The notes: generated by a model not told the origin, from the sequence alone. A DNA stretch of 64,000 nucleotides from Opitutales bacterium (GCA_038231575.1 JBBRLB010000011.1:1488-65487); one strand, 5' to 3'. Shown: positions 5,849 to 46,903, counted from the stretch's first letter. A program made the numbers and translations.

Positions 5849-5865
5849 GTTCGGACCTTGCCGGC

Positions 5866-6750
5866 TCAGTGGGCTCGAGCGGCCATGCGATCCGCCAGGC
5901 TGTCGAGAAAGGACTGATTGGCCGGAAGCGAAGAGAACGCGCGGCGAGCTTGGCCGGTGTGCTCGGCGGCGAAGCGCCGTGAGGTTTCGAGGCCATGGAT
6001 CTTCACGAACGTCGTCTTGTCGGCCTGCGCATCTTTGCCGGCCGTTTTGCCGAGCGTCGCGGTGTCGGCGGTGGCGTCGAGGATGTCGTCGATGATTTGG
6101 AACGCCAACCCGAGGTGGCGGCCGGCGCGACGGAGCGTGACGAGGTTCTCTTCGGTCGCGCCGCCGATGAGACCGCCCATCACGAGCGCGGCTTCGATCA
6201 TCGCGGCGGTGTTGTTGAGGTGGATAAATTCCAATTCGTCGGGCGTGGCATCGGATTTTTTCTCGGCGAGCAAGTCCTCCATTTGGCCGCCGATGAGGCG
6301 GCGGCTTCCGGCGGCATCGGCGAGTTCGCGGACGAGTGCGGCGGCGAGCTTGGGTTGGGCGGAATAGTTTTCCGCGAGGAGGGCGAACGCGTGGGTGAGG
6401 AGAGCGTCGCCGGCGAGAAGTGCCGTCGCTTCGTCGAACTGCTTGTGGGCCGTCGGGCGGCCGCGGCGGAGGTCGTCGTTGTCCATGCACGGCAAATCGT
6501 CGTGAATGAGGGAGTAAGTATGGACGCACTCGACCGCGACGGCGGCGGGCAGGGCGGAATCGTCGTTCACTCCGCATAATTCCGCGGCCGCGAGCACGAG
6601 CACGGGACGCAGGCGTTTGCCGCCGGCTTCGAGCGAGTAGCGCATCGCGGTGTGGAGGCGCGCAGGCCGGGTGTCGGCCCGCGGCACGAATTGATCGAGG
6701 CCGCGCTCGACGCGGGCGACATGGCGCTTGAGTTCGCTGGGAAAATCCAT
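5866..6750 (-). CDS. ispA: Polyprenyl (farnesyl/geranylgeranyl) diphosphate synthase
   Basis: Both Asp-rich motifs are present: LIHDDLPCMDNDDLRRG and FQIIDDILD. Start taken at MDFPSELKRH (ATG 6750). Confidence 0.9.
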   Translation of the reverse strand: MDFPSELKRHVARVERGLDQFVPRADTRPARLHTAMRYSLEAGGKRLRPVLVLAAAELCGVNDDSALPAAVAVECVHTYSLIHDDLPCMDNDDLRRGRPTAHKQFDEATALLAGDALLTHAFALLAENYSAQPKLAAALVRELADAAGSRRLIGGQMEDLLAEKKSDATPDELEFIHLNNTAAMIEAALVMGGLIGGATEENLVTLRRAGRHLGLAFQIIDDILDATADTATLGKTAGKDAQADKTTFVKIHGLETSRRFAAEHTGQARRAFSSLPANQSFLDSLADRMAARAH

Positions 6751-27926: not shown

Positions 27927-27988
27927 TGAAAGTCGTCAGCGACCGAGCCACCGCGATGACGTGGGTGGTCCCGGTCCGCTTCCACGCC

Positions 27989-30748: not shown

Positions 30749-30854
30749 GGGGCAGGGGTTCGACGCGGACGGGAAGTGAGTGGACATGCTCGCTTCACTC
30801 CGAGGCAAGGTGAAACGCTGCCCGGTCAGCGTGCGGCCGCGTGCCGCGCCCACG

Positions 30855-33800: not shown

Positions 33801-34091
33801 GATGAGCTGGCAGAGATTTTGGTAACCGGTGCGCGTGGCGACGAGGAGTGGAACGACATGGCCGTCCTCCATCGTGATTTCGGCGCCGACGCGGGCGCGG
33901 AGATTTTGCTCGCGGGCGGCGCCATAGAAACGCGGCGCACCGTAAAGCCCATCGCGGTCGAGCACCGCGACCGCGGGCAGTTCCAGTCGCGCGGCCTCGC
34001 GCGCGAGATCCTCGGGCGACGAGGCGCCGCGCAGGAAACTGAAGGCGCTGCGCGCGTGGAGTTCGACGTAGCCGCTCATGGTGCTAGTCAT
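30855..34091 (-). CDS. dnaE2: Error-prone DNA polymerase DnaE2 (ImuC)
   Basis: PHP-domain start YVELHARSAFSFLRGASSPEDL. About 1075 aa. The ATG at 34091 overlaps the imuB stop (ATGACTAG). ATG 34079 is an alternative start. Confidence 0.9.
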   Translation of the reverse strand: MTSTMSGYVELHARSAFSFLRGASSPEDLAREAARLELPAVAVLDRDGLYGAPRFYGAAREQNLRARVGAEITMEDGHVVPLLVATRTGYQNLCQLITEAKLTPRAPGLKGPRFPAGESPDLAAGSRCHLPAPSDRKRPCFATWTELEKYSGGLIALTGDEDGSVRRAWRTGGAAAANFSLAKLLTIFGRDRLFVELQRHRIRGEEREMTFLRDLAAAHRLPVLATGGVAYATAADRMVADVFTCLRGHTTLDAAGRRLEINAERRLKSAREMAERFADLPEAVANSLHLDATLAFTLENLGYQFPGFLTPPGETMDTYLRARTFAAAHERFGALPENLQLQLNKELELIARLKFSGYFLIVWDICAWARQQKILVQGRGSAANSAVCYVLGITAVNPLKHRLLFERFLSDGRVGADGNPSWPDIDLDLPSGDRRESVIQEVYRRYGMRGAAMTANVITYRGRSTTREIGKVLGFGDDALDRFSSLYANGDFPQTLDLQEQLRMAGIAAPHPRAEAMVRLHHHLQGLPRHLGQHSGGMVISRDQLDKVVPLEPATMPGRSVCQWDKDDCENLGIVKIDFLGLGMMAVLQDSFELCAHRGGPHNFNDIPPDDPETYEKIRAADTVGVFQIESRAQMATLPRFKPVNLYDLAIQVAIIRPGPITGHLVHPLIRRRDGVEKDDYIDPSVEALVKPILARTRGVILFQEQMLELSMTLAKFSGAQAEELRRAMGFTKQPEKLHHALAQLMLALRREGHNEAVVNRVCDSARTFAAYGFPESHAIGFAMLAYASTWLKIHRPAEFYASLLNHQPMGFYSPATLLQDGRRHALQAHPVCVAASRWECTVAGGKSIRLGLRFVKGLREAAARAMLAARDEQPFTSLDDFLRRSDFTATERRALAAVGALDVFSHHRRTALWQVEAAWSDDEALFKQFADAYREDSPLAAMSRGEEVQADFSGLGLTVGEHPMALIRDRLEVCPAKDLRHVANGQTVTIAGAVICRQRPGTAAGFVFLSLEDETGIANAVVVPQLFERLRLVITQEPALKITGRLQNVSNVTHVRAETIEPLRESDLPAQASHDFH

Positions 34092-35709
34092 ATTCGCCCT
34101 CGATGAACCAGGCGCCGTCGACGCGCAGGAGCCGGTAGAGTCCGCCGCCGGCCAGCGCGATGTCCCACTCAAGTCGCGACCACGCGCGATCGTTTTGCCA
34201 CCACTCGCCGCTGCTGGGCCAAACGAGGCTGCGAAAGGCAATTTCACCCCGGAGGCGCTCGGTCCAGAGGAACGTCGGGCGACCTTCCATGAACTCGAGT
34301 CGGGCCGGGAGCGGCGGGCGAAAACGGCGCAGCGGCGTGCTGAGGACGGGATGCAGGGGCGGCGACGCGAGCGGAGGAATCACGGCGGCGGGCGGGGTGA
34401 GTCTCACGGCATCGGGCCGATGCGTGTCTTCAAGTTGCGGCGTGCCCAGACGATCGGCGCCGACGAGGGCGGAGACGCGCGCGAGGGTCTCGGCGAAGCC
34501 GTGCGGATCGCGCAGGCCGGTTTCGAACAGTCCTTGCTGGCGGACGAGCGGGCGCGTGGGCGTGAGGCGAAGATCGACGGCGATGATCGAGGCGGCGGTT
34601 TGCAGCGATGCGAGATGCGTGTGCAGCGCGCGAAAAAGGATTTCCGGATCGGCGGTGGGCTCGGGCAGGCGGAAATCCCGGGCGTGCCGGGTTTCGTCCT
34701 CGAGGCGGAGCGTGAGCTCGATCTCGGCGGCGACGTGTTGCGAGGTGATCAACTCGAGCGAGAGGCGATCGAGGAAGCGGCGGAGGAGGAAGAGGAGGGG
34801 ATCGAGGGTTTCGATCGGGTCTTCGAATTCCATCGTGGCGGAAAAGGTTTGCGGCGGGATGACGGGGCGCAGCGGGCGCGGGTCGCCCCCGGCAGCGCGT
34901 TGCCAGACGGCGAGGCCCTCGGCGCCGAAGCGGCGCACGATGTCGTCGCGGGGCAAGGCCGTGAGATCGCCGAGCGTGCGCAGACCCCAGTTGGCAAAAA
35001 CCCCGGCGAGTTCAAGCGACGGATCGGCAAAGGCGAGGGGAAGTGGGGCGAGGAAGTTTTTTTCGTCGGGACTCGCGATGAAGCGGAGGGAAGATTCTTC
35101 GCCGGCCATCGTGCTCGTAATTTGAATCGTTCGCTCGGTGGGAGCGGAAGCGGGTGATTTTCCGGCAGGAGCACGAGAAAGATTAAGAGCACCAGAAGGA
35201 TTGAACGGAGTCGCCCTCGCGGCGTAGAGCGCGAGGAGCGGCGTGCGCGCCAGGCCGGCGGTGGCGGGGAGCGCGAGCCGCGCCAGTTCGGCGATGGCCG
35301 CGTGAGCCGCGGGGGTGAATTTTTCGCGAACGGAACCGCGGAGATCGATCGTGGAGATGCCGGGGGCGGTGGCCTCGATCGCGGGCGAGAGGGTGAAGGC
35401 GACGGCGAGGAGGGCGGCGCGGGCTTCGATTTCGGCGGCGAGGTTGGGCGCGCGAATGAGGAGCGTGGGGCAGCGCGCGACGGCTTGTGGGGCCGTCATG
35501 CCACGTTCGACGCCAGCGGCACGCGCGGTGGGGGTGGTCGCGAGGACGAGGGATTTCTTCCCCGTATTGGCGAAGAGCGCCGCCTTTCGACCCTGCTCTC
35601 TTCGGCTCGGCTCAGGGCCGGCAGGGCCGGCAGAATTATCGCGACTCGCGCGCTCCGTGCGCAGCACGGCGTAAAGAGCGAAGTCGGCGATGTGAAGAAC
35701 GGCGAACAC
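34084..35709 (-). CDS. imuB: ImuB (Y-family polymerase-like mutasome subunit)
   Basis: MFAVLHIADFAL...GVERGMTAPQAVARCP. Its position between imuA and dnaE2 fits. GTG start. Confidence 0.85.
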   Translation of the reverse strand: MFAVLHIADFALYAVLRTERASRDNSAGPAGPEPSRREQGRKAALFANTGKKSLVLATTPTARAAGVERGMTAPQAVARCPTLLIRAPNLAAEIEARAALLAVAFTLSPAIEATAPGISTIDLRGSVREKFTPAAHAAIAELARLALPATAGLARTPLLALYAARATPFNPSGALNLSRAPAGKSPASAPTERTIQITSTMAGEESSLRFIASPDEKNFLAPLPLAFADPSLELAGVFANWGLRTLGDLTALPRDDIVRRFGAEGLAVWQRAAGGDPRPLRPVIPPQTFSATMEFEDPIETLDPLLFLLRRFLDRLSLELITSQHVAAEIELTLRLEDETRHARDFRLPEPTADPEILFRALHTHLASLQTAASIIAVDLRLTPTRPLVRQQGLFETGLRDPHGFAETLARVSALVGADRLGTPQLEDTHRPDAVRLTPPAAVIPPLASPPLHPVLSTPLRRFRPPLPARLEFMEGRPTFLWTERLRGEIAFRSLVWPSSGEWWQNDRAWSRLEWDIALAGGGLYRLLRVDGAWFIEGEYD

Positions 35710-35757
35710 AGGAGAGGGACGAGTGGCCCGGGACGTGAGACGAGTCCGGACGGGCGC

Positions 35758-36402
35758 TCATGCCGTGGCGGCGGTGTGAAGGCGCTGGCGTTGCAGAGTG
35801 GGCGAGAGGATTGTGGCGAGCGCGGGACGTTCGAGGGAGAGCGCGGTGAGCGCGTGCGAGGCGTTGAGGAGGAAGCGGAGTTGGGCGCTGGGCACCGTGG
35901 CGTGCGGGGTAATGACGACGAGGGCGAGGTCGCTGGGTTCGGCGGCGCGTTGGAGGCGATACCAAAAGCTGGCGGGCGTGCGGCGCAGTTCGCGGTCGCT
36001 GGCGTGGCGTAGATCGAGGACGACGAGGCCGAGATTGGCGTCGCGGGTGAGAAGATCGGTGGCGGCGAGAGCTATCGCGGGCGTGCAGCGGACCCACACC
36101 AGGTGCGCGAGCAGATCGACAGGAAACGAGCCGGGATCGAAGGAGTCGGTGGCGTCGACGAGGGCGACGCGCGTGCGAGTGGCGCGGGTCGCGGCAAGCA
36201 GTTGCTCGAGGAGGAGATGACTGCCGCAGCTCGGCGCGGCGCAGACGATCTCGGTTACGGCGCCGAGCGGGAGTCCGCCGGCCGGATCATCGAGCGCGGC
36301 GAGGCCAGTGCGCAGCGCGCGCGCGACGACGCGCGGCGCGGTGGGAAATTTTTCGGCGAGTTTGCGCCGGAGCTCCGCCAGTTTCTCGGCCGCCGCAGGC
36401 AT
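35758..36402 (-). CDS. imuA: ImuA (RecA/SulA-like mutasome subunit)
   Basis: 214 aa. TGLAALDDPAGGLPLGAVTEIVCAAPSCGSHLLLEQLL. Located upstream of imuB-dnaE2. Confidence 0.8.
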   Translation of the reverse strand: MPAAAEKLAELRRKLAEKFPTAPRVVARALRTGLAALDDPAGGLPLGAVTEIVCAAPSCGSHLLLEQLLAATRATRTRVALVDATDSFDPGSFPVDLLAHLVWVRCTPAIALAATDLLTRDANLGLVVLDLRHASDRELRRTPASFWYRLQRAAEPSDLALVVITPHATVPSAQLRFLLNASHALTALSLERPALATILSPTLQRQRLHTAATA

Positions 36403-36767
36403 GAGACAGAAGGACGAAGGCCAGAGCGCAGAGCGTGAAGGCGAGGGAACGGGCGCCGGGCTTCACGGGGACTGAATCAACCCACCAAATCTTGATCGGC
36501 GTCGAAGTTTTCGCGGAGGGGCGTCCAGAGACGGAAGAGCGAATGCGTGCGGAAAACCTGGATCACGCCGGAGGTGTGCAGGGCGAGCAGGGTGAAACGG
36601 AGCGGACGGCGGGGGGCGGGTTTAGTGAAGAGTTGGAGTTTCATGGTGGGAAAGAGGGCGGAGTTTTTTTGACCGCGGATGACGCGGAGGATCGCGGACC
36701 AAGCCGGATGGCGGGAGAGTGATATCGGTGTGATCCGCGTAATCGCGGTGAAGCGATCGGGATGGAA

Positions 36768-37391
36768 TCAGCAGGCGCCGGTGCGCAGGAGGCCGACCAT
36801 CACGCCTTGGATGGTAAGCTCGGTGGTGGGGAGCAGATCGGGGTAGCGCGGGTTTTCGGCGCGGAGAAACGCCTGGCCGCGCTGGAGGAGAAAACGCTTG
36901 AGGGTGGACTCGCCATCGATGAGCGCGGCGACGATGTCGCGCGGGCGCGGCTCGCGGGGCGTGAGAAAGACGACGTCGTTCTCGACAATGTTGGCGCCGA
37001 TCATGGAGTCGCCGCGGACGCGGAGGGCGAAGACTTTGGTGTTGGCGCGCACGCCGAGCGCGGCGGCGTCGACGGAGATATGGCTGTCGGCTTCCTGCAC
37101 GGCGTCGGTCGGCAGGCCGGCGGGGATCACGCCGAAAAGCGGGATGCTCATGAGGGCGCTGCCCGGATGGTGATTGGGATGGAGGAGGCCGCGGGCCTTG
37201 CCGGGGAGGCGCTGGAGCGCGCCCTTTTGGGTGAGGGCGTCGACATGGCGTTGGACGGCGAACGGGCTCGCGAAGCCGAAGTGTGCCTGGATTTCGCGGA
37301 GCGAGGGCGACACGCCCGATTCGAGTTGATGGGCGTGGATGAAATCGAGAACCTGCTGCTGACGGGGCGTAAGAGAAGGGTTATCGGCCAT
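36768..37391 (-). CDS. lexA: LexA repressor
   Basis: MADNPSLTPRQQQVLDFI...SLREIQAHFGF. Cleavage and peptidase motifs are present (GDSM ... LKR). ATG at 37391; the track start at 37400 is a TTG inside the operator. Confidence 0.92.
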   Translation of the reverse strand: MADNPSLTPRQQQVLDFIHAHQLESGVSPSLREIQAHFGFASPFAVQRHVDALTQKGALQRLPGKARGLLHPNHHPGSALMSIPLFGVIPAGLPTDAVQEADSHISVDAAALGVRANTKVFALRVRGDSMIGANIVENDVVFLTPREPRPRDIVAALIDGESTLKRFLLQRGQAFLRAENPRYPDLLPTTELTIQGVMVGLLRTGAC

Positions 37392-37393
37392 AG

Positions 37394-37407
37394 TGTTCAA
37401 GTGAACA
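37394..37407. promoter_or_regulatory. Candidate LexA operator TGTTCAAGTGAACA
   Basis: Perfect TGTTC-N4-GAACA palindrome 3 nt upstream of the lexA ATG. It matches the LexA motif I recall being reported for Verrucomicrobia. Confidence 0.7.
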
Positions 37408-37524
37408 CGTCAGCGCCGAAATGCAATGTTTTGTTTTTGGCGCAGCACGATTTTTTAGATTCGAGCGTCGATTTGACATCAAATCTAAACCGACCAGTAT
37501 CCGACCAGTTAATCTCTTGAAATC

Positions 37525-37773
37525 ATGAACACGATCACTGTCGGCGCCTACGAGGCCAAGACCAAGCTCGCCCGTCTGCTCGCGCGGGTGTCGCGCGGCG
37601 GTGAAGTTATTATCACCAAGCACGAGAAACCTGTTGCACGTCTGATGCCGATCTCGCCCGACACGCGGCTGTCTGTCCAAGAATCTCTCAATGGGCTGGC
37701 CGCCATCCGCAGTCGCGCAGGACGAGGTTCCGAATCCCTCAAGCAGCTCATCGTCGCCGGCCGTCGCGCATGA
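37525..37773 (+). CDS. Phd/YefM-family type II antitoxin (VapB role)
   Basis: MNTITVGAYEAKTKLARLLARVSRGGEVIITKHEKPVARLMP. Its stop overlaps the downstream PIN gene start. Confidence 0.85.
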   Translation: MNTITVGAYEAKTKLARLLARVSRGGEVIITKHEKPVARLMPISPDTRLSVQESLNGLAAIRSRAGRGSESLKQLIVAGRRA

Positions 37774-38186
37774 CGCCGGTCGTGATTGATAGTTCGGTGA
37801 CGCTGGGTCTGGCGTTGCCGGATGAAAGTGGCGACGTGGTGACTGCGGCCGAGACGGCGATGCGCAAAGGCACGCCGTTCTATGCGCCGGCACATTGGAG
37901 CATCGAAGTCGCCAATGGCGTGTTGATGGCGGAGCGCCGCAAACGGATCACCCATGCCGATGCCCGCGCTGTGCTGAATCTGATTCGCCATCTGCCGGTC
38001 GAGATCGATGGTGAACTGACGCTTCATGCTTTCGACACCATTTCGGCTCTGGCGCGGCAATATAGTCTGACGACCTACGACGCGGCTTACCTTGAACTCG
38101 CGATGCGCCGGCGCGCGGCGCTGGCCACGCTGGATGCAGCCTTGCGAAAAGCGGCTTCGACAGCGGGCGTGCCACTTCTCGCCTGA
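37770..38186 (+). CDS. vapC: PIN-domain toxin VapC
   Basis: MTPVVIDSSV...TTYDAAYLELA. Acidic PIN residues sit at the expected spacing. Confidence 0.85.
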   Translation: MTPVVIDSSVTLGLALPDESGDVVTAAETAMRKGTPFYAPAHWSIEVANGVLMAERRKRITHADARAVLNLIRHLPVEIDGELTLHAFDTISALARQYSLTTYDAAYLELAMRRRAALATLDAALRKAASTAGVPLLA

Positions 38187-38222
38187 GCGTTCCATCTGCT
38201 CTCACGTTCATTTCTTTTCTCC

Positions 38223-39323
38223 GTGTCACGCGCCCTGGCCGATTTCAGTTTGTCCGAACTCCAGCAGCAATTCGCTGCGTGGGGCGCGAAGCCGTCGCAC
38301 GCGGCGCGGGTGCTGCGGGCGTATTACGAGAACGGCGGCGAACTGCCTGAACTCGTCGCGACTCCGACGTCATCGCGCACTTCGTCGGCGCGGCCTGGTT
38401 TCGCGCTGCCCGATGATCTGCTCGCGCGGCTCCGCACGGAACTCGCGCCCGGCGCAGCGGAGGTGGCGGTGCGCCAAGTCGCGGCGGACGGCACGACGAA
38501 ACTGCTCTTGCGACTCGGCGACGGGCGCACGGTCGAGTCGGTGCTGATGCCGGATTTTCGCGCGGACCGCGCGGCGGGTTGCATTTCCTCCCAAGTCGGC
38601 TGCGCGATGGGTTGTGATTTTTGCGCGACGACGAAGACCGGTTTCGAGCGCAACCTCACCGCCGGCGAAATCGTGGCGCAGTTTCTCGCGCTTCGTCGCG
38701 AAGCGCGCACCACGGGCCGCCGGCTGCAAACGGTCGTGTTCATGGGCATGGGCGAACCGCTGCTCAACCTCGACCACGTGATCGAAGCCGTGCGCCGCAT
38801 CGCCGACAACCCGCTTGGCGCGCTCGGTTGGCGGCAGGTGACGGTGTCGACCGTCGGCATTGTGCCGGGCATCGATGCGCTCGCCGCCACCGGCCTGAAC
38901 GTGAATCTCGCCGTCTCGCTCCACGCGCCCGACGACGCCACGCGCGCGTCACTCCTGCCGATGGGAAAACGTTTCGCCATCGCGGAAATCCTCGCCGCCG
39001 CCGATCGGTTTCAGGCGAAACGCGGCCGGCCGGTGACGATTCAATACTGCCTGCTCAAGGGCGTGAACGATTCCGCCGAACACGCGCGCACGCTGGCGTC
39101 CGTCCTCGGCGCACGCCGCATGCACGTGAATTTGCTGCGCTACAATCCCACCGGCCTCAGTCTGCGCGGCATCAGCTACGAGCCAACGTCCGACGACACG
39201 GCTGAGACGTTTGTCGCCGAATTGCGCACGCGCGGAGTCGTCGCACATTTCCGCCGTTCGCGCGGGCCGGAGATCGACGCGGCCTGCGGGCAACTGCGGC
39301 GGCGGGTTTCCGAGCCAGCATAG
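38223..39323 (+). CDS. rlmN: Radical-SAM 23S rRNA/tRNA (adenine-C2) methyltransferase RlmN
   Basis: CISSQVGCAMGCDFCATTK radical-SAM cluster motif ... MGMGEPLLN ... IDAACGQL at the C-terminus. GTG start. Confidence 0.92.
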   Translation: MSRALADFSLSELQQQFAAWGAKPSHAARVLRAYYENGGELPELVATPTSSRTSSARPGFALPDDLLARLRTELAPGAAEVAVRQVAADGTTKLLLRLGDGRTVESVLMPDFRADRAAGCISSQVGCAMGCDFCATTKTGFERNLTAGEIVAQFLALRREARTTGRRLQTVVFMGMGEPLLNLDHVIEAVRRIADNPLGALGWRQVTVSTVGIVPGIDALAATGLNVNLAVSLHAPDDATRASLLPMGKRFAIAEILAAADRFQAKRGRPVTIQYCLLKGVNDSAEHARTLASVLGARRMHVNLLRYNPTGLSLRGISYEPTSDDTAETFVAELRTRGVVAHFRRSRGPEIDAACGQLRRRVSEPA

Positions 39324-39815
39324 AAGGCATTAAGAACTAAAACCTGACTCCGCCTGCTCGCTCGGTTTCGGGCGCCGTGGCGATCATCTCGTCGGACCAC
39401 GCGATCACTTCGGGCGCTTCGACGAAGCTTTCGTGATGCGTTGGATAAAATATTCCGCCTTAGTCCGGATAGTTCATCTTCCGAACTCTTCAGAGGTCAT
39501 GATTATGCCCAGAGCGAAAGGCTGGTGTGAAGATCGCCCCGAGCACGGATGAGGCGAGGAGAACCCCGGTGGTTTTCACGGGGGGACAGATTCATGATGG
39601 GCAGAAAGCTTACCGCCACGAGTAACTCTGCTCGCGTGGATGCGAGTTAAGAACCAAGGACGGCTAGCGTAACCCGAGCGAGGATCGACCCAGCGAGAAG
39701 CTCAGGAAAGCGAGGATTGCCTTGGAGGAAAATCCTCCCGCGTAGGGTTGAGACCCACTCATGCGGAGGAAGAATGTCGGGAACCAGCGACCGATCCGCT
39801 CAATCTATTCTCGTT

Positions 39816-40403
39816 ATGAAAGCCCCCGCTCTCCCCCTGAGTGCTTTGGCCGCTGCCATCGCGACACTCGGCTCCGGCTGCGCCAGCAGCACCCCGCCCC
39901 CGCCCCCTCCTCCTCCCGCTTACTCGCAATACCCCAACTCCTATCCAGCCGACGAGTCTCGCACTCCGAACCACACCGCGCGGGGCGCCGTCGCCGGGGC
40001 GGTGGCCGGTGCCGTGCTCGGCGGGATTATCGGCAACAACTCCGAGCACGGGAACACCGAAAAAGGTGCCGTGATCGGTGCCGTCGCCGGCGGCATTGCC
40101 GGCGGTGTGATCGGTCACCATGCAGATCAGCGGGAGTCCGCCGGCGTTTACTCGCCGGACACGGGCTATGTCGTGCAAACCGTGCCCCAGCAGCCTGGAT
40201 CGGAGCCGTATGAGCAGGTGCCGCCGCAACCGGCGCAGCAAGCCGTGTGGATCCGCGGCCACTACGATTACGTCGGCAACGGTTATCAGTGGACACCGGG
40301 CCGGTGGGAGATTCCACCGGGCGGCGCACGCGTGTATATCGGCCCATCATGGCAGCCAGCGGCGAGGGGCGGCTACATTTACGTGCGCGGACACTGGCAG
40401 TGA
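39816..40403 (+). CDS. Lipoprotein with a glycine-zipper segment and C-terminal YXWGXW-type repeats
   Basis: MKAPALPLSALAAAIATLGSGC lipobox. GAVAGAVAGAVLGGIIG / GAVIGAVAGGIAGGVIG glycine zippers. WIRGHYDYVGNGYQWTPGRWEIPP and YIYVRGHW repeats. ATG 39774 is an alternative start. Confidence 0.75.
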   Translation: MKAPALPLSALAAAIATLGSGCASSTPPPPPPPPAYSQYPNSYPADESRTPNHTARGAVAGAVAGAVLGGIIGNNSEHGNTEKGAVIGAVAGGIAGGVIGHHADQRESAGVYSPDTGYVVQTVPQQPGSEPYEQVPPQPAQQAVWIRGHYDYVGNGYQWTPGRWEIPPGGARVYIGPSWQPAARGGYIYVRGHWQ

Positions 40404-40550
40404 GCCTCGCGTGCAAAATGGTATCCTCGGTTCACAAAACTGGCGGTGCCCAGAGCCTCCTTTTGCTGTAAACCCGCCGAATGAGAGGGGGTGAATGTTT
40501 GCGTTCAGCTCCCCACCTACCGCTGGTCCCGCTCATCGCCGATCGTTGTC

Positions 40551-42710
40551 TCACTTCGCCAGCGGATCGGGCCGGAGCTGGAAGTGCATGACTTTGCTCG
40601 TGGTGCCTTTCCCGGTCTCCATGTGAAACGGCGCGCGCGTGCTCACGCACGCCCAGAGGCCGCGGCCTTTCCAGCCGGCCTTCGCGTCGTCGATGCGGCC
40701 GTCCATCCACTTGGTATAAAACCCGAGCGGGTAGGGCACGCGCAGGATCACCCACTGGCCGTCCTTCAACGCGAGCAGGCCCTCGGATTCGTTGCCGGTG
40801 TTGATCGGCGTGTTTTTACCGAGGCCCAGCGTGTCGAACTGATCGACCCACGTGTAGTAACTCGCCTCGGCGCTGCCGCCGGTCTTCACGCCCTGCAACT
40901 GCGGCAACGGTTCCGGATAAAATGTCCAGCCCTCGCGCGCGTGCTGGCCCGTCGCGGTCGGGCCGTTGAGCGGACCCTTCACTTTGCGCCGATCGAAACT
41001 CGCCATGTGCCCGCTCGCGAGCGCGACCCACGCCACGCCGTCGCGATCGATGTCCATCCCGCGGGGCGAGAAACCCTCGATGGGCTCACCCTTGTCATTG
41101 AGCGGGAGTTCGTAATATTCGGCGAGCGCCGTTGAGGGCGGATTCGCTCCGGGATTCAGTCGCACGATCGCGCCGGGATAACTGAGCACCGAGCCCCACA
41201 CGGAGCCGTCGGGTGCCGGCGACACCGAATAAAACGGCGCGTTGATGCGTTTGTCCTTCGCGGGATCGACGGGGTCGTTGGGCTCGACGTAGGCGTCGCG
41301 GCGGCCGTTGCCGTTCGTGTCGAGAATGAGCGCGGTCCAGCCTTGCGACGCGACCTCGTCGCCCGTCTCGAGAAATTTTTTCGTGTTCAACCAGCCCACG
41401 ACCTGGCCGCCGCCGCTCGTCCACGCGGTGTTGTTGGCGTCCTCCGCGAACATCACGTGATGCGTGCTGAAGCCGGTGCTGATGTGCGTGTATTTCTGCG
41501 TCTTCGGATCATACATGCCGAGGTGGCGGCTCGCGTTGGCGAGCGGGAAAAGTTTTGCCGACTCGAAAGCCGAGCCCTTGCGGAAAACTTCCGGATTGGC
41601 CGACGGCCGCACGGTCGCGGTGATCCAGACGCGGCCTTCGCCGTCGAACATCGGATTGTGCACGTTGGCCTTGCTGTTCCAGATAATCTCGTCGCCCCAA
41701 TACGGCGAGGCGCCCGGTTTTTCCTGCGCGGCCGCCGGTTTCGTCGCCGGATCGCGCACCGTCAACGGCACGCGGCTCGTCGTGTGATGCACCGGATCGA
41801 GCACGGGTAGGTAGTCGGCGCTGAGCTCGAGCGAGCCGTAGAGGAGACCGTTGGCGTTGACGGTGGGGTTGCGGCGGTCGGTCGAGACCACGTCGTGGAG
41901 ATAGGCCTTCGGATCGGCCCAGTCCCACTGCGTGATGACGACGTTGCGCTCGATCCCCTGCGGCCGGCGCGGTGCCGGCGGCACCTCGCCCGCGGCGATG
42001 CGATCGGTCCAGTCGGCAAACATTTTTATGGCGCGCTCGCGGCCGACGCTGGCGAGCGTGCGGACCATGTCGGCGCCCGCCTGGCCCGAGAGAATCCGGC
42101 GTTCCCAGGCCTTCTCGGTGGACTCCAAGCCGTGAAACAGATCGGGCAGCTCGCGCGTCGCCTGCGTGCCGAGCGCGTGACACGAGAAGCAGCCGCCGGA
42201 TTTGATGATGCGGAGAAACTGCGCCTGATTTTTGATCGTGGGTGAAATGCCGTTGCCGATGGTGCCGGGAAATTCTTCCGGCGCCGGCGGACGCAACAGC
42301 GAATACCAATAGCCCGCCGGATAATAATGCGCGGCGGCTTTCGGAGTCGGCGCGATGACGGCAGAGAGATTGAGCGTCTTGCCGGGCGCGGATTTTAGCT
42401 TCGCGGAATCAACGAGACCATAGCCGCGCACCCACACGTCGTAATTCGCCGCCGGGAGTTCCGGGAGCACATAACGCCCGCGATCATCGGTCACGACGAT
42501 CTTCGCGAACTTGGTCGGGAGGTCCGTCGTCTCCGCGATCACCCACACGCCCGCCTCGGGGCCGGCCGGGCTCGTGACGACGCCCTCCAGTGATCCAGTC
42601 CCTGGCGGCGGTGATTGACCGAAACTCAGAGTGACACCGACGAGGAATAGAAAGAGCGCGCCAGTGATCGGCGCACGCAATGAGAAGCCGGAGTCGAGGA
42701 GAAGTTTCAT
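40551..42710 (-). CDS. Secreted multidomain protein: carboxypeptidase-regulatory-like domain, single CXXCH heme-c motif, large beta-rich C-terminal region
   Basis: Signal peptide MKLLLDSGFSLRAPITGALFLFLVGVTLSFG. GSLEGVVTSPAGPEAGVWV...VTDDRGRYVLPELPAANYDVWV. The only heme motif is GGCFSCH. The track start at 42884 adds an implausible 58-aa extension. Confidence 0.7.
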   Translation of the reverse strand: MKLLLDSGFSLRAPITGALFLFLVGVTLSFGQSPPPGTGSLEGVVTSPAGPEAGVWVIAETTDLPTKFAKIVVTDDRGRYVLPELPAANYDVWVRGYGLVDSAKLKSAPGKTLNLSAVIAPTPKAAAHYYPAGYWYSLLRPPAPEEFPGTIGNGISPTIKNQAQFLRIIKSGGCFSCHALGTQATRELPDLFHGLESTEKAWERRILSGQAGADMVRTLASVGRERAIKMFADWTDRIAAGEVPPAPRRPQGIERNVVITQWDWADPKAYLHDVVSTDRRNPTVNANGLLYGSLELSADYLPVLDPVHHTTSRVPLTVRDPATKPAAAQEKPGASPYWGDEIIWNSKANVHNPMFDGEGRVWITATVRPSANPEVFRKGSAFESAKLFPLANASRHLGMYDPKTQKYTHISTGFSTHHVMFAEDANNTAWTSGGGQVVGWLNTKKFLETGDEVASQGWTALILDTNGNGRRDAYVEPNDPVDPAKDKRINAPFYSVSPAPDGSVWGSVLSYPGAIVRLNPGANPPSTALAEYYELPLNDKGEPIEGFSPRGMDIDRDGVAWVALASGHMASFDRRKVKGPLNGPTATGQHAREGWTFYPEPLPQLQGVKTGGSAEASYYTWVDQFDTLGLGKNTPINTGNESEGLLALKDGQWVILRVPYPLGFYTKWMDGRIDDAKAGWKGRGLWACVSTRAPFHMETGKGTTSKVMHFQLRPDPLAK

Positions 42711-42837
42711 AGTCCGTGTCCTTTCACGAAGCGAGGGAGTGGGGCAGCAACCGCCGGATGATCGAACGCCCGGCGGTGGCGTGAACGGCAACACACTGAC
42801 CTCCCCGAGGCAACGTCGATGTGGGTTGTCTCGTTGC

Positions 42838-43133
42838 TCACATTGTGAGGTGCTCGGCCCAATAGCCCGGCCTCCGTTTGCCATGCATCACTGCGACGAC
42901 GTGCAGCCGTTCGGGTTCAATCGTGTAGAGCAACTTGAACGGAAATCCCGCACGACGCATTTGCGCACCGGTCCGCGCAGGCGCGGCCACACTTTGGGAT
43001 GCGCCGTTATGCGCGCGACGGTGAGCATCGCCGCTTGATAGAATCTCAAGCCCAAGCCGGGGGACCCAGCCTGATAATAATCGATCGCCGCCTGAAACTC
43101 CGCGTCAGCCTCGGGGTGGAAGAGCGCGTTCAC
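42838..43133 (-). pseudogene. RelE/ParE-family toxin with a -1 frameshift
   Basis: The N-terminal frame reads MNALFHPEADAEFQAAIDYYQAGSPGLGLRF...VRKCVVRDF. The family-typical C-terminus (P)FKLLYTIEPERLHVVAVMHGKRRPGYW is only readable after a one-base shift at GG 42941-42942, where GGG is expected. Confidence 0.75.
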
Positions 43134-43243
43134 AGGCCCAGCCGTCGCTGCGCCTTGGCAAAGACTTCCTCCGCCGGCACACCTTTGACTGCACCGCTCG
43201 TCAATTCCTCGGCCCGTCGCTCAGCCGTGTCAGCCCAAGCGGC
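43130..43243 (-). pseudogene. 5'-truncated addiction-module antitoxin (only the C-terminal 37 codons remain)
   Basis: AAWADTAERRAEELTSGAVKGVPAEEVFAKAQRRLGL matches the C-terminal half of the small 'putative addiction module component' antitoxins. There is no start codon. Its upstream part is replaced by the rlmN fragment. Its stop overlaps the toxin GTG. Confidence 0.65.
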
Positions 43244-43319
43244 TTTCCGCCGTTCGCGTGGTCCGGATATCGACGCGGCGTGCGGGCAACTCAGGAGGCG
43301 TAATGAAATATTAGCATGA
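43244..43319 (+). pseudogene. Orphan second copy of the rlmN 3' end (last 24 codons plus stop)
   Basis: Encodes FRRSRGPDIDAACGQLRRRNEILA*, compared with FRRSRGPEIDAACGQLRRRVSEPA* at 39248-39323. There is no upstream rlmN body. Confidence 0.85.
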
Positions 43320-43381
43320 GCTGCGCGTCTGCTGGCTGAGTGACGCGTGACAAGTTACGAGTTTCTGCCTACAGAATCTGA

Positions 43382-43972
43382 ATGCTCTTTGCCGAAATTA
43401 TTGAAAACCACGGCATCGATTTAGTTAATGCTGTCGCTGTTCCATTTGTTGTTTCTCTAGTCGTTGGGATACCTCTTGCGATCTATGCCGGATTAGTGGG
43501 ATCGCGACTTGTTGGGTTCTACGAGACTCGCACTGCAGCTGTTCAGGAATTGATGTTTTTGCCGCGAGCGCTTTCAGAGGCTGGAAATATTCGTAAGGCG
43601 AATTTGAGACTCGCTGAAATGTGGGCAGCCACACGAGTAGCTTTTAATGGTCAGAACCAAGCCGAGGCTTCGGCAGTTCTCGATCGCTTGAATAGAGAGG
43701 CGATCGGATTTTACAGGCACGCCTTCCTGACGCAGATGAGCTTAGCTGAGATAAATGCGGTTATGGGTGACGCTCAGGCTATGAGTGAGGAGCGCTGGTT
43801 TTCGATGAGTTGTGGCATTATCGAGCAAAACACGATTGGCTTAAACCAGCTTCGCGAAATTGAATCTTTAGAGCCTAACTACTCGGTGATTTTTGAAGTG
43901 CCAACTTTGGGACGCTGGTTGCGTCGCAGCGATTGCGGCGACTGCTGCTCGAATTGTAAACGAGTGCTTTAA
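43382..43972 (+). CDS. Orphan hypothetical membrane protein (196 aa), AT-richer than its surroundings
   Basis: One predicted TM helix (AVAVPFVVSLVVGIPLAIYAGLVG), a helical body, and a Cys-rich tail CGDCCSNC. Its codons (TTA, ATA, AGA, AAT, TTT) are otherwise rare in this window. Confidence 0.65.
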   Translation: MLFAEIIENHGIDLVNAVAVPFVVSLVVGIPLAIYAGLVGSRLVGFYETRTAAVQELMFLPRALSEAGNIRKANLRLAEMWAATRVAFNGQNQAEASAVLDRLNREAIGFYRHAFLTQMSLAEINAVMGDAQAMSEERWFSMSCGIIEQNTIGLNQLREIESLEPNYSVIFEVPTLGRWLRRSDCGDCCSNCKRVL

Positions 43973-43974
43973 TC

Positions 43975-44079
43975 TTACGCCTTCTTATTCCGTCCGCCCT
44001 TTGCCTCGATGTTCAGGTAAGTCTCATTGAGCATCTGGCTTTCGTAAAGTTCGAGGAGGCGGACGCCTTCGCGCGGCTT
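43975..44079 (-). pseudogene. Orphan second copy of the speA 3' end (last 34 codons plus stop)
   Basis: Encodes KPREGVRLLELYESQMLNETYLNIEAKGGRNKKA*, compared with KPREGVRLLELYESQMLNKTYLNIEAKGGRKKKA* at 44781-44885. Confidence 0.85.
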
Positions 44080-44384
44080 CAGGCGGACAGGGGTTCGACT
44101 TCGGCTTCGATGCGGCGACCGAGCGCGGTGCGGGCTTGCTCCAGATCGTAAGCTTGCTGGAGATTCAGCCAGAAGCGCTCACCGGTGCCGAAGAAACGGC
44201 CGAGGCGCAGCGCGGTGTCGGCGGTGATGGCTCGGCGCCCTTTGGTGATCTCGGTGAGGCGCGAGGCGGGAATGCCCGTGCGCTGGCTCACTTGATAGCA
44301 GCTGAGGTCGTGCGGTGTGATCCACTCCTCGAGCAGAATCTCCCCGGGCGTGATATTGGAAACGACGGGCAGTTTGGTTTTCAT
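44079..44384 (-). CDS. higA: HigA-family antitoxin (XRE helix-turn-helix)
   Basis: ITPGEILLEEWITPHDLSCYQVSQRTGIPASRLTEITKGRRAITADTALRLGRFFG. Confidence 0.88.
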   Translation of the reverse strand: MKTKLPVVSNITPGEILLEEWITPHDLSCYQVSQRTGIPASRLTEITKGRRAITADTALRLGRFFGTGERFWLNLQQAYDLEQARTALGRRIEAEVEPLSA

Positions 44385-44412
44385 GGCAGATGAATTCTCG
44401 GGCGAGCAGGGT

Positions 44413-44694
44413 TCAGTGGTAATCTACAATTTCAACGTTGTGGGCATCTTCGCCGGCCCAACGGAAGCAGAGGCGCCACTGGTCGTTTATGCGAATGCTG
44501 TGTTGGCCGCGGCGTGAGCCCTTGAGAGCTTCCAGTCGATTGCCGGGTGGCAGGCGCATGATGTCGAGTCGATCGGCGGCATCAAGTTGGAGGAGCTTGC
44601 GTCGGGCGGCGCGTTGGATGTCAGGCGGCAAGTGACGTGAAGCCGTGCCGCCAAAGAGCTTTTCGGTCTCAGCGTCAGCGAAGCTTTTGATCAC
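44413..44694 (-). CDS. higB: HigB-type (RelE-fold) plasmid-maintenance killer toxin
   Basis: MIKSFADAETEKLF...LEALKGSRRGQHSIRINDQWRLCFRW. Toxin-first gene order is typical of HigBA. GTG start. Confidence 0.88.
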   Translation of the reverse strand: MIKSFADAETEKLFGGTASRHLPPDIQRAARRKLLQLDAADRLDIMRLPPGNRLEALKGSRRGQHSIRINDQWRLCFRWAGEDAHNVEIVDYH

Positions 44695-44780
44695 GAAGGC
44701 CAGGGTAGGCCACGTGACGATGTTCGCAAGCAGAATAGTTACGCGAAGCGTAACTATGGATTCGAACTACAGATCCACGC

Positions 44781-46724
44781 CTACGCCTTCTTCTTCCGCC
44801 CGCCCTTCGCCTCGATGTTCAGGTAGGTCTTGTTGAGCATCTGGCTCTCGTAGAGTTCGAGGAGGCGGACGCCTTCGCGGGGTTTGACCATGTCCTTCTT
44901 CGTCGCGGCATCGATCTGCACTTTCATTTTCCGGCACAGATCCTCTTGCTGGTATTGCACGCCTTCGATCACGTCGGCGATGCGGCTGCCGCTCAGCGCT
45001 TCTTCAATATAGAAGCCGTTCGGCTCGTCGTCTTCGAGGAACACGTGGACTTCGTTCACGCGGCCGAAGAGGTTGTGGAGGTCCCCCATGATGTCCTGGT
45101 AGGCGCCGGTGAGAAAGATGCCGAGGTAGTAGGGTTTGCCGTTGAGCGGGTGGAGCGTGATGTAGTCGCGCACGTCCTGCAGATCGATGAAGCGATCGAT
45201 CTTGCCGTCGGAGTCGCACGTGATGTCGACGAGGATGGCGTTGACGGTGGGCTTTTCCTTGAGCCGGTGGAGCGGCGCGATCGGGAAGAGTTGATCGAGA
45301 CCCCAGTGATCGAGCAGCGACTGGAAGACGGAGAAATTGCAGACGTATTGGTCGGCGAGGAGCTTGTCGAGGTCGTGGAGTTCCTCGGGCTGGTAGCCGG
45401 ATTTTTTTCCTTCCTTCGCGATCTGCTCGCAGATTTGCCAGAAGAGCGATTCGGCGGCGGCGCGGTTTTCGAGATCGAGATAGCCGAGGTTGAAGAGGGA
45501 GAACGCCTCCTCCTTTTTCTGCAGCGCATCGTGGAACCGCTCAAGCAGGCCGAGCTTGGTTTTGTTCTTCAACATCACCTCGAGATCGGTGACGACTTTG
45601 TGCTTTTCGTCGGGCTCGTGCTGCTTGCCGAGTGACTCGCGCTTGTTGATCCGCTCGAACACCTCGACGACGAGCATCGAGTGCTGCGCGACGACGGCGC
45701 GGCCGGACTCGCTGACGATGTCGGGGACGGCGACGCCGGACGAGGTGCAGATTTCGCGGATGTTGAAGACGACATCGCGCGCGTATTCCTCCATCGAGTA
45801 GTTCATCGAGCTTTCGAAGTTCGTGCGCGAGCCGTCGTAGTCGATGCCGAGGCCGCCGCCGACATCGAGGTAGCCCATCGGGAAACCCATCTTCGCGAGC
45901 TGGCAGTAGAAGCGCGTGGCTTCGACGACCGCGTTTTTGATCGTGAGGATGTTCGGCACCTGCGAACCGATGTGGAAATGCACGAGGCGCAGGCACGATT
46001 GCAGTTTCGCGGCGCGGAGTTTTTCGCAGGCGAAAAGAATTTCCGCGGTGTTGAGACCGAACTTGGCGTTGTCGCCGGTCGAGGTCGCCCAACGGCCTTC
46101 CCCGCGCGTCTGGAGTTTCGCGCGAAAACCGATCATCGGTTTCACGCCGGTCTCAGCGGCGAGGCGGATGATGTCGTCGAGTTCGGAGAGTTGTTCGACG
46201 ACGAGGATGATCTTCTTGCCGAGCTTGCGGCCGAGGAGGGCGAGCCGGATGTAATCCTGATCCTTGTAGCCGTTGCAGATGATGAGGCGTTGGGCGCCTT
46301 CGTGCATCGCGAGCGCAATCATCAGCTCGGGCTTGGAGCCGGCCTCGAGGCCGAAGTTGAACTCCTTGCCGGCCGCGACGATCTCGTCGACGACCTCGCG
46401 GAGCTGGTTGACCTTGATCGGGAAGACGCCGCGGTAGTCGCCCTTGTAGCCTTCCTCTTTCATCGCCTTCAGGAAAACTTGGTTGAGCTGGACGACGCGG
46501 TGGCGGAGCAAATCCTGAAAGCGGATGACCATCGGCGCCTTGAGGCTCATGCCGAGGGCCTCGTTGACGACATCGAGCACGCGGATGCCGCGGCCATCGG
46601 TCAGCGGCTGGACGTTGACGAAGCCATCGTCATCGACCGAGAGATGCCCGGAGCCCCAGCGTTTGAAGCCGTAGTGCTCTTCGGACTTGGCGGCCGACCA
46701 GGCGGCGGAGGATTTGGTTTTCAG
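44781..46724 (-). CDS. speA: Biosynthetic arginine decarboxylase SpeA (start uncertain; CTG proposed)
   Basis: FPIKVNQ...GLEAGSKPEL...NGYKD...HFHIGSQ...DVGGGLGIDY. The conserved N-terminal segment EEHYGFKRWGSGHLSVDDDGFVNVQP lies upstream of the first ATG/GTG/TTG (GTG 46580). The only near-cognate start in the open frame is CTG 46724. Confidence 0.85.
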   Translation of the reverse strand: MKTKSSAAWSAAKSEEHYGFKRWGSGHLSVDDDGFVNVQPLTDGRGIRVLDVVNEALGMSLKAPMVIRFQDLLRHRVVQLNQVFLKAMKEEGYKGDYRGVFPIKVNQLREVVDEIVAAGKEFNFGLEAGSKPELMIALAMHEGAQRLIICNGYKDQDYIRLALLGRKLGKKIILVVEQLSELDDIIRLAAETGVKPMIGFRAKLQTRGEGRWATSTGDNAKFGLNTAEILFACEKLRAAKLQSCLRLVHFHIGSQVPNILTIKNAVVEATRFYCQLAKMGFPMGYLDVGGGLGIDYDGSRTNFESSMNYSMEEYARDVVFNIREICTSSGVAVPDIVSESGRAVVAQHSMLVVEVFERINKRESLGKQHEPDEKHKVVTDLEVMLKNKTKLGLLERFHDALQKKEEAFSLFNLGYLDLENRAAAESLFWQICEQIAKEGKKSGYQPEELHDLDKLLADQYVCNFSVFQSLLDHWGLDQLFPIAPLHRLKEKPTVNAILVDITCDSDGKIDRFIDLQDVRDYITLHPLNGKPYYLGIFLTGAYQDIMGDLHNLFGRVNEVHVFLEDDEPNGFYIEEALSGSRIADVIEGVQYQQEDLCRKMKVQIDAATKKDMVKPREGVRLLELYESQMLNKTYLNIEAKGGRKKKA

Positions 46725-46903
46725 GGAGTGGGGAGTTAAGGGCTGAGCGTTGAGAGGCCGAACTCAGAGAAGGAGCGGTGCCGCAGTGTCTTGGCTCTCA
46801 ACGCTCATCTCTCAACCCTCAACTTTCCGGTGTTCTGTCTTGCTTTTGCAGGCGGCGAATCAGTTAGATGCGCGTTTTCTTTTTCCAAATCACCCAACAC
46901 GCA

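Follow-up and report, generated by a model that had tools for sequence, protein, structure and literature searches.

Gene content of the lexA-speA zone

The DNA analysed here, called the window throughout, is a 64-kb stretch from an Opitutales bacterium, and the element in question is an 836-bp block at positions 43244-44079, in which a second copy of the 3' end of rlmN and a second copy of the 3' end of speA converge on either side of a gene for a 196-amino-acid (196-aa) protein. The block lies between the resident rlmN and the resident speA, among several small toxin-antitoxin (TA) genes, with a GC content of 0.48-0.51 compared with 0.60-0.70 around it. The top matches of the window's RlmN and SpeA proteins are metagenome-assembled genomes of Opitutae and Opitutaceae. 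The zone examined runs from lexA to speA (36.7-46.7 kb); all open reading frames (ORFs) of at least 40 aa in it were listed, and those that looked like genes were searched against Pfam, NCBIfam and PADLOC, giving the following features.

36768-37400, minus strand: lexA, the conserved far flank of the variable zone
37525-37773, plus strand: Phd/YefM antitoxin (PF02604, 41.4 bits; TIGR01552, 40.5 bits)
37770-38186, plus strand: PIN (VapC-type) toxin (PF01850, 33 bits)
38223-39323, plus strand: resident rlmN (TIGR00048, 317 bits, cutoff 290)
From 39324: spacer of 393 nucleotides (nt) between rlmN and the lipoprotein gene, 57-60% GC, with no recognisable gene
39717-40403, plus strand: Gly-zipper lipoprotein (PF13441 and PF13488, about 39 bits)
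40551-42884, minus strand: secreted CxxCH protein of 719-777 aa, with a weak CarboxypepD_reg match at its N-terminus (the 777-aa gene below)
42838-43133, minus strand: ParE, frameshifted (PF05016, 30.9 bits after frameshift repair)
43133-43243, minus strand: PF09720 antitoxin remnant, the last 36 codons (profile positions 29-54 of 54)
43244-43319, plus strand: rlmN 3'-end fragment, 76 nt, 24 codons and a stop
43382-43972, plus strand: 196-aa ORF, 48% GC
43975-44079, minus strand: speA 3'-end fragment, 105 nt, 34 codons and a stop
44079-44384, minus strand: higA (TIGR02607, 92.7 bits, cutoff 47.7)
44413-44694, minus strand: higB (PF05015, 65.7 bits)
44781-46724, minus strand: resident speA, biosynthetic arginine decarboxylase

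The ORF listing and the profile matches bear out the gene order from rlmN to speA given in an earlier reading made from the sequence alone, together with its count of three TA modules in about 7 kb: a Phd/YefM-PIN pair, a decayed ParE/antitoxin pair and higBA, all of type II and spanning 7.2 kb. That sequence-only reading had found no integrase, transposase or tRNA, which the present scans uphold, with no recombinase family (integrase, transposase) matched among the interval ORFs by Pfam, NCBIfam or PADLOC and no tRNA or tmRNA in the entire 64 kb. No Rfam family occurs between 36 and 48 kb, and promoter and terminator scans of the interval gave nothing above chance level. The PADLOC defence models, a check proposed with the earlier reading, matched none of nine interval proteins.

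Divergence of the duplicated gene ends

Both second copies were recovered as repeats of the resident ends, in keeping with the earlier description of two orphan gene ends facing each other around an orphan ORF. The speA repeat pairs 43976-44079 with 44782-44885 (104 nt, 90% identity) and the rlmN repeat pairs 39248-39304 with 43244-43300 (57 nt, 88% identity). Compared as peptides with the window, the second copies match at E = 6e-18 (speA) and 1e-9 (rlmN), far above background matches. The longest identical run between repeat copies is about 26 bases, with differences scattered over the full length. Homology in the rlmN fragment begins at TTTCCGCC and covers its first 19 codons, with one amino-acid change in these 19 codons relative to the resident end; the tail is different. 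The speA fragment, exemplified by the allele sequence AAGCCGCGCGAAGGCGTCCGCCTCCTCGAACTTTACGAAAGCC, shows two amino-acid changes, and of its 11 nucleotide differences all but one (10) are third-position changes.

Over the 54 codons common to the fragments and the resident ends there are 19 nucleotide differences, distributed 3/0/16 over codon positions 1/2/3. Sixteen of the changed codons are synonymous and three are not (P = 1e-7 against a 25% synonymous expectation), and the direction is skewed, with 14 differences running from resident G/C to fragment A/T and two in reverse (P = 0.002). GC content at third codon positions (GC3) is 0.70 in the fragments and 0.91 in the resident ends; elsewhere in this genome it reaches 0.86 in speA, 0.89 in secDF and 0.84 in lexA. 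Because the differences are synonymous-biased and the fragments poor in GC3, the fragments diverged under purifying selection, while still protein-coding, in a lineage of lower GC3.

Relatives were compared as loci of at most 22 kb, not as whole genomes. An RlmN search, restricted to one genome per species, supplied 80 loci, each reaching 10 kb downstream, and a SpeA search supplied 80 metagenome loci; the closer relatives L162, L164 and L168 were reached via the 777-aa protein and HigA. Against L162 and L164 the resident speA end shows 95-96% identity and the fragment 89.5-90.5%, with the fragment retaining the small-clade C-terminus EAKGGR.KKA. The rlmN fragment carries three diagnostic states (CGT/GCG/AGG) common to L001 and L086 and absent from the resident copy. 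The synonymous bias, the AT shift, the identity to L162 and L164 and the states of L086 and L001 all point to inserted DNA from a related lineage, and the block reads as DNA of a functional gene pair from a sister lineage, not as a local duplication followed by decay. The earlier view of the block as a miniature rlmN/speA junction from an AT-richer relative is thereby strengthened.

Borders of the block

At the left joint (43243/43244), rlmN homology starts at 43244 and the C-terminal half of the PF09720 antitoxin lies directly to the left, with the N-terminal half missing (profile positions 1-28 gone). The ParDE-like module is dead as read from its frames, the toxin being frameshifted and the antitoxin truncated; the left joint would have either killed a TA module or struck an already dead one. 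At the right joint, the speA fragment extends as far as 44079, a position that is also the first base of the stop codon of higA (44079-44081, opposite strand). Because one border cuts the antitoxin and the other falls exactly at the stop of a full-length higA, the borders look like illegitimate joints rather than att sites.

The two borders of the block share the 7-mer GCGGCTT in direct orientation (43239-43245 and 44073-44079). Among 200,000 random position pairs in the window, about 2% share a 7-mer or longer equally near both positions, and the repeat could be a target duplication, a trace of microhomology or chance.

The left part of the structure recurs in an independent assembly. A Logan contig of 1833 nt (L081, run SRR19962015), produced by a different assembler, is 100% identical to window positions 42208-44040 and runs across the antitoxin/rlmN-fragment joint and the 196-aa ORF into the first part of the speA fragment.

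Stable and unstable flanks in relatives

None of the 80 species-level rlmN loci carries speA or any of the window's cargo within 10 kb of rlmN. The closest of them, L001 (rlmN 87% identical in nucleotides), is collinear with the window over 27417-39305, about 12 kb, and synteny breaks off only a few bases from the stop codon of rlmN (window 39305, L001 11059). Past the break L001 has unrelated genes that the window lacks: a 739-aa gene, amt, a glycosidase gene and genes for pyruvate dehydrogenase. Between close genomes, a rearrangement breakpoint thus lies at the 3' end of rlmN.

The opposite side is far more regular. SpeA shows 88-92% aa identity across the 80 metagenome loci, and secDF-yajC lies upstream of speA in all 72 loci with enough upstream sequence, as well as in L162 and L168, while the content after speA varies among the 80 loci. 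In eight of them lexA follows speA in the same orientation, at a distance of about 90 nt in L142, L152, L153, L156 and L157. By tblastn, lexA is found at 67-88% aa identity in L001, L083, L098, L117, L142, L152, L153, L156, L157, L162 and L164; it forms the far flank in 12 loci, and the L162 orthologue matches Pfam LexA_DNA_bind and Peptidase_S24. The distance between speA and rlmN is 0.46 kb in L086, 5.3 kb in L168 and 5.5 kb in L162, with different genes inside. Starting from speA, the zone reads as follows in five relatives.

L162: speA, RelE/ParE-type toxin and antitoxin, 718-aa gene (90% aa identity), hybrid kinase, convergent rlmN, 205-aa gene, lexA
L164: speA, TA pair as in L162 with an internal deletion, unrelated 160-aa gene of 49% GC, 720-aa gene, lexA; no rlmN
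L086: speA, TA pair (relE-type) as in L162, convergent rlmN
L168: speA, 102-aa gene, 260-aa gene, SNase, remnant of the L162-type TA pair, solo higA, 504-aa gene, convergent rlmN
L083: speA, higB-higA, antitoxin and ParE-like toxin, lexA; no rlmN

The interval content differs in all six cases, the window included. The speA side is constant, whereas the rlmN side recurs only in L086, L162 and L168, and in neither L164 and L083 nor any of the 80 rlmN loci. The proposal of a cargo hotspot between rlmN and speA therefore stands as far as a variable interval and a convergent rlmN/speA pair in L086, L162 and L168 are concerned, but rlmN fails as a stable flank. The stable flanks appear to be secDF-yajC-speA and lexA, with rlmN itself coming and going. 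Neither of the two patterns that the sequence-only reading had named as fatal to it, rlmN and speA never being neighbours or an interval invariant in content, is seen, since the two genes are neighbours in those three relatives and enclose different contents.

On this comparison, the speA-lexA stretch in a small Opitutae clade appears to be a zone of gain, loss and breakage of small genes without a dedicated mobility gene, the small genes being mainly TA pairs of the RelE/ParE/HigB and PIN types and low-GC orphan genes. Decayed TA remnants are present in L164 and L168 as well. In L164 (1293-2214) an internal deletion fuses the RelE/ParE-type toxin to the antitoxin, and the 160-aa gene of 49% GC follows on a contig of 62% GC, a second case of a dead TA pair beside a low-GC orphan in the same slot. 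In L168 (8126-9057) rlmN lies in two overlapping pieces in different frames with no gene call, and it may be frameshifted.

Several further features concern the flanks themselves. On the far side lies a cassette for SOS mutagenesis, comprising lexA, a 55-aa ORF (36477-36644, 77% aa identity to L162), an imuA-like RecA-fold gene (35758-36402) and imuB (34084-35709); in L162 (16912-22157) dnaE2 continues the cassette, and recJ lies beyond secDF on the opposite side, with repair genes thus bracketing the variable zone. At the speA end, the conserved SpeA N-terminus (KSSAAWSAAKSEEHYGFKRWG...) reaches 48 codons upstream of the first ATG, GTG or TTG (46580-46724); the start seems to be CTG at 46724 or another non-standard codon, giving 647 aa, and aligns with the TTG start of L086. 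Just upstream of this probable start, the divergent speA-yajC intergenic region holds a 30-nt inverted repeat (46727-46756 and 46795-46824, 80% complementary, 38 nt apart), which may be a regulatory structure.

Toxin-antitoxin modules

The higB and higA genes are on the same strand with a gap of 28 nt, and their profiles identify a RelE-fold toxin followed by a HigA-family helix-turn-helix antitoxin, as expected of HigBA. This predicted TA pair is intact: TIGR02607 is matched over its full length, and each of the ten nearest HigA homologues has 101 aa and the same C-terminus, ...EVEPLSA, as the window protein. A truncation of higA, suggested by an L083 HigA that is 10 residues longer, was ruled out by these ten homologues. 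In L083 (12235-12570) the higA stop reads AGA in place of TGA, extending the protein 10 residues beyond the 101-aa homologues.

The L083 pair occupies the same place after speA and is 83% identical in nucleotides and 92-95% in amino acids to the window pair, with homology that begins in speA, crosses the spacer and lasts until higA ends (79.9% over 942 nt). In L168 a solo higA (87% aa identity) stands between speA and rlmN; at 5687-6306 this higA has no higB and directly follows the remnant of a RelE/ParE-type TA pair.

The Phd/YefM and PIN genes overlap by 4 nt (37770-37773), and their profiles predict a VapBC-like module. This segment has no nucleotide match in 160 loci, and the content of the lexA-rlmN slot differs between genomes, L162 having an unrelated gene of 205 aa there and L001 an ORF of 146 aa. 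Downstream of 55 more distant speA loci, one of 150 small ORFs within 1.1 kb belongs to a TA family. The accumulation of TA modules at this spot, as originally proposed, accordingly holds in the close clade but not beyond it.

Other genes of the interval

At word-index sensitivity, the 196-aa gene matched only itself among 5.8e9 proteins. A HMMER search of 1.84e9 representatives recovered 24 remote homologues of similar length (best 37% identity, E = 3.5e-30), and the ORF is therefore not the true orphan it had been taken for. The family is sparse, with proteins of about 190 aa (members P0122-P0144) and an N-terminal transmembrane helix (VGIPLAIYTG..R..F); 6 of 15 aligned members carry the C-terminal cysteine motif RSDCGDCCxNCxR. 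The 196-aa protein itself is read as membrane-anchored and bears this motif. Its AlphaFold model is all-alpha, confident with a pLDDT of 86, and has no fold match in the PDB, and the protein has no Pfam, NCBIfam, PADLOC, plasmid or phage match. The gene of the closest homologue sits after an SMP-30-like gene, not after rlmN, and nothing suggests a mobility function. Neither the 196-aa gene nor segment 39306-43243 found a nucleotide match in the first 160 loci; L162 and L164, added later, match the 777-aa gene within that segment.

The 777-aa gene, read earlier as an acquired heme-c gene, occupies the same speA-lexA position in L162 (88.6% nucleotide identity) and L164 (84.9%), with 89-90% aa identity. 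Because both relatives hold the same gene at the same place, it appears to be a resident of the clade formed by the window, L162 and L164 and not recent cargo. More than 8000 homologues are found at E <= 1e-10, and those at about 80% identity lie in unrelated contexts. Identity is 71-81% alike in Verrucomicrobiota, Acidobacteriota and Bacteroidota (Cyclobacteriaceae), unusually high across phyla, and some sources label the homologues 'streptogramin lyase'. The spacer and lipoprotein segment has no homologue in any of 168 loci; the slot between the rlmN side and the 777-aa gene is filled by an 825-aa hybrid histidine kinase in L162 and by a 528-nt spacer only in L164.

Proposed history of the block

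Homology-facilitated illegitimate recombination (HFIR) is a process in which donor DNA pairs with the recipient via one homologous stretch, while its foreign tail is joined illegitimately at a nearby downstream site, according to PMC3240628 and PMC5361080. It has been established experimentally (de Vries & Wackernagel 2002; Prudhomme et al. 2002; Meier & Wackernagel 2003, as cited in PMC5361080; PMC3240628). On a modest balance of probability, the block arose by two successive one-sided events of this type, both anchored in speA.

The donor of the first event would be a sister lineage with convergent speA and rlmN and the 196-aa gene alone between them, an arrangement like that of L086. Its speA - 196-aa gene - rlmN end would have paired with the resident speA, and an illegitimate joint would have put the far end within the antitoxin gene of a parDE module already in place, destroying that module and carrying the last 76 nt of the donor rlmN as a passenger. 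In the second event, speA - higB - higA DNA from a closer relative would have paired with speA again, with an illegitimate joint just after the higA stop, at a point 104 nt short of where the speA then in residence ended, which would have left those 104 nt stranded as the second fragment. Arrangements of both kinds exist among the relatives: L086 has convergent speA and rlmN around a 0.46-kb TA module, and L083 has the speA-higBA order. One-sided recombination is favoured over a clean double crossover because the latter replaces cargo without leaving a duplicate.

The gene speA is plausibly the homology anchor. It is 92-95% identical in nucleotides to that of L162, compared with 80-90% for the adjoining secDF, and its nucleotide identity across genera, at 85-96%, lies above that of its neighbours. 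Joints made by HFIR typically show 3-10 nt of microhomology near the anchor. The joints here sit 0.1 kb and 1.5 kb from the speA end, between non-homologous sequences; TGA at 44079-44081 and TT at 43244-43245 are candidate microhomologies, for whose actual reading the parental sequences are needed. From these features we infer the donor arrangement, the number and order of the events and the anchoring role of speA.

Several observations weigh against this history. No donor with the order speA - 196-aa gene - rlmN was found among the loci, the 196-aa gene being present in this organism only, and second copies of the gene ends occur in no other locus (80 rlmN loci, 80 speA loci, L162, L164, L166 and L168), making this a single case. 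Two events are required where one might suffice, and the GCGGCTT repeat at both borders fits a one-step insertion better. There is no step in identity along speA or rlmN relative to L162, L164, L086 and L001, relatives too distant to reveal a recombined tract. As L081 ends at 44040, no second assembly supports the joint at 44079/44080. The earlier proposal, that homology in the flanking genes drove the exchange and incomplete recombination left the duplicated ends, fits the anatomy of the locus, but the searches yielded no donor, no breakpoint in speA or rlmN and, in more than 160 loci, no second case; homology-driven incomplete recombination is the best available explanation, short of proof.

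Alternative explanations

Foremost among the alternatives, unlikely though it is, stands the picture drawn in the sequence-only reading, a one-step capture, between higA and the antitoxin, of an 836-bp piece of the speA/rlmN junction of a sister lineage, illegitimate at both ends and occasioned, for instance, by break repair or aborted recombination. The starting order would have been speA - higB - higA - (spacer) - antitoxin - ParE - 777-aa gene, and insertion would have removed the spacer together with the antitoxin gene's 5' half. Such a capture needs a single event, agrees with the foreign character of the block by synonymous sites and GC3, places both borders at or within TA genes and draws on the direct repeat at the two borders with its roughly 2% chance expectation. 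That 7-mer is nevertheless weakly significant, its left copy being part antitoxin and part rlmN sequence, and higA adjoins this parDE module in no relative. A further difficulty is that the insertion of a piece of the homologous locus into the same locus, in the same orientation, goes unexplained unless homology guided it, while homology guidance predicts replacement without duplication.

Reversed polarity is an improbable course. The block would then be the genome's own old rlmN/speA junction, and both flanking segments would have come in by one-sided recombination, speA-higBA anchored in speA and rlmN-lipoprotein-777-aa-ParE-antitoxin' anchored in rlmN. Each duplicated end does lie directly beside a segment that ends in an illegitimate joint, and L086 shows the group to include a minimal speA/rlmN junction. 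The GC3 values speak otherwise, however, as it is the resident ends, not the fragments, that match the rest of the genome; the 777-aa gene is in place in L162 and L164 with a divergence like that of the flanks, suggesting vertical descent, and the upstream side of rlmN is collinear with L001 for 12 kb. This reading was initially favoured and was downgraded by the GC3 and sign tests and by the 777-aa gene of L162 and L164.

A chimeric assembly, stitched from two co-occurring strains at the repeated gene ends, is very unlikely. The source is evidently a metagenome-assembled contig, L081 ends within the speA fragment, and the exact HigA, HigB, RlmN and YajC proteins are unrecorded in the contig index. 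Yet the joints at 43243/43244 and 44079/44080 separate unrelated sequences with no shared k-mer to mislead an assembler, the repeat copies share only short exact runs (at most about 26 bases in a row), and a different assembler gives 42208-44040 base for base.

Still less credible are two islands that have lost their integrases, with att sites in the 3' ends of rlmN and speA and the repeats as attL and attR. Direct repeats of gene 3' ends do flank accessory genes (39248...43300 and 43976...44885) in classic island geometry, but neither an integrase nor a remnant of one was found by the interval scans, and the repeats, at 88-90% identity with orthologue-like synonymous differences, are far from the near-identical copies expected of att sites. 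The inner border of the first island would moreover cut the antitoxin gene, L162 and L164 have the 777-aa gene in that position but no repeat, and none of the 160+ other loci has such repeats.

Local duplication of both gene ends followed by neutral decay would account for copies in direct orientation within 4 kb and 0.8 kb of the originals, but it can practically be set aside, as decay would strike all codon positions (P = 6e-4 even allowing for GC-biased targets) and the rlmN fragment has L001/L086 states missing from the resident copy.

Relation to known systems

Horizontal-transfer hotspots without mobile elements, whose content turns over by recombination at flanking core genes, have been described (Oliveira et al. 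2017, PMC5635113). The present locus resembles them in being a short interval beside conserved genes, with different accessory genes in each relative and no integrase, transposase or tRNA, in the very conserved flank speA, and in its neighbouring repair and recombination genes, recJ to one side and lexA-imuA-imuB-dnaE2 to the other. It differs in that only the secDF-yajC-speA flank is stable across the family, with lexA a more general far flank than rlmN, and its scar indicates that exchange here was not always a clean double crossover.

With HFIR the locus would share one homologous anchor, a foreign tail at a non-homologous site, truncated genes at the joints and retention of recipient sequence past the joint, which leaves the end of the anchor gene present twice; HFIR is known mainly from laboratory transformation and conjugation, whereas its action here would be read from a natural genome. 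A similar logic has been proposed, in PMC5361080 and its references, for the strings of displaced 3' ends in Rhs, contact-dependent inhibition (CDI) and type VI secretion system effector loci. There too an incoming module with its own conserved part displaces the old 3' end downstream in the same orientation, but those ends encode polymorphic toxin tips with immunity genes and are recurrent and selected, whereas the ends of the housekeeping genes speA and rlmN are functionless and form one case.

Islands at gene 3' ends with att duplication likewise have direct 3'-end repeats bracketing accessory genes; the present locus differs in the lack of an integrase, in orthologue-like repeats and in borders that cut other genes. 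Clusters of chromosomal type II TA modules (higBA, vapBC/phd-PIN, parDE/relBE) offer a further parallel, given the density of modules in the window, one of them decayed, and the TA pairs occupying the same zone in L083, L086, L162, L164 and L168. No integron, prophage or plasmid context, no attC-like repeats and no PADLOC model match accompany them here.

Significance

A more far-reaching possibility, which we regard as a long shot, is that an 806-bp unit, in which the terminal 104 nt of speA are followed by the spacer and the higB and higA genes, acts as a self-sufficient, integrase-free cassette with a portable homology arm. If so, the unit would loop out between the speA-end repeats and re-enter any related genome through one crossover in speA. 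TA modules would travel between lineages attached to the ends of the best-conserved core genes, each insertion being stabilised by addiction, and duplicated ends would mark a general route rather than an accident.

Evidence for the movement of accessory genes without mobile elements is mostly statistical or drawn from laboratory transformation. The genome of this uncultured member of the Verrucomicrobiota appears to keep physical traces of such movement, in the form of two stranded gene ends, a TA module apparently killed at a joint and an intact module beside it. The processes would be known ones in an under-studied phylum, not a new kind of system, and an annotated 'core' neighbour such as rlmN can itself belong to the moving content. 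The locus provides a checkable example of TA pairs and orphan genes piling up beside a very conserved gene.

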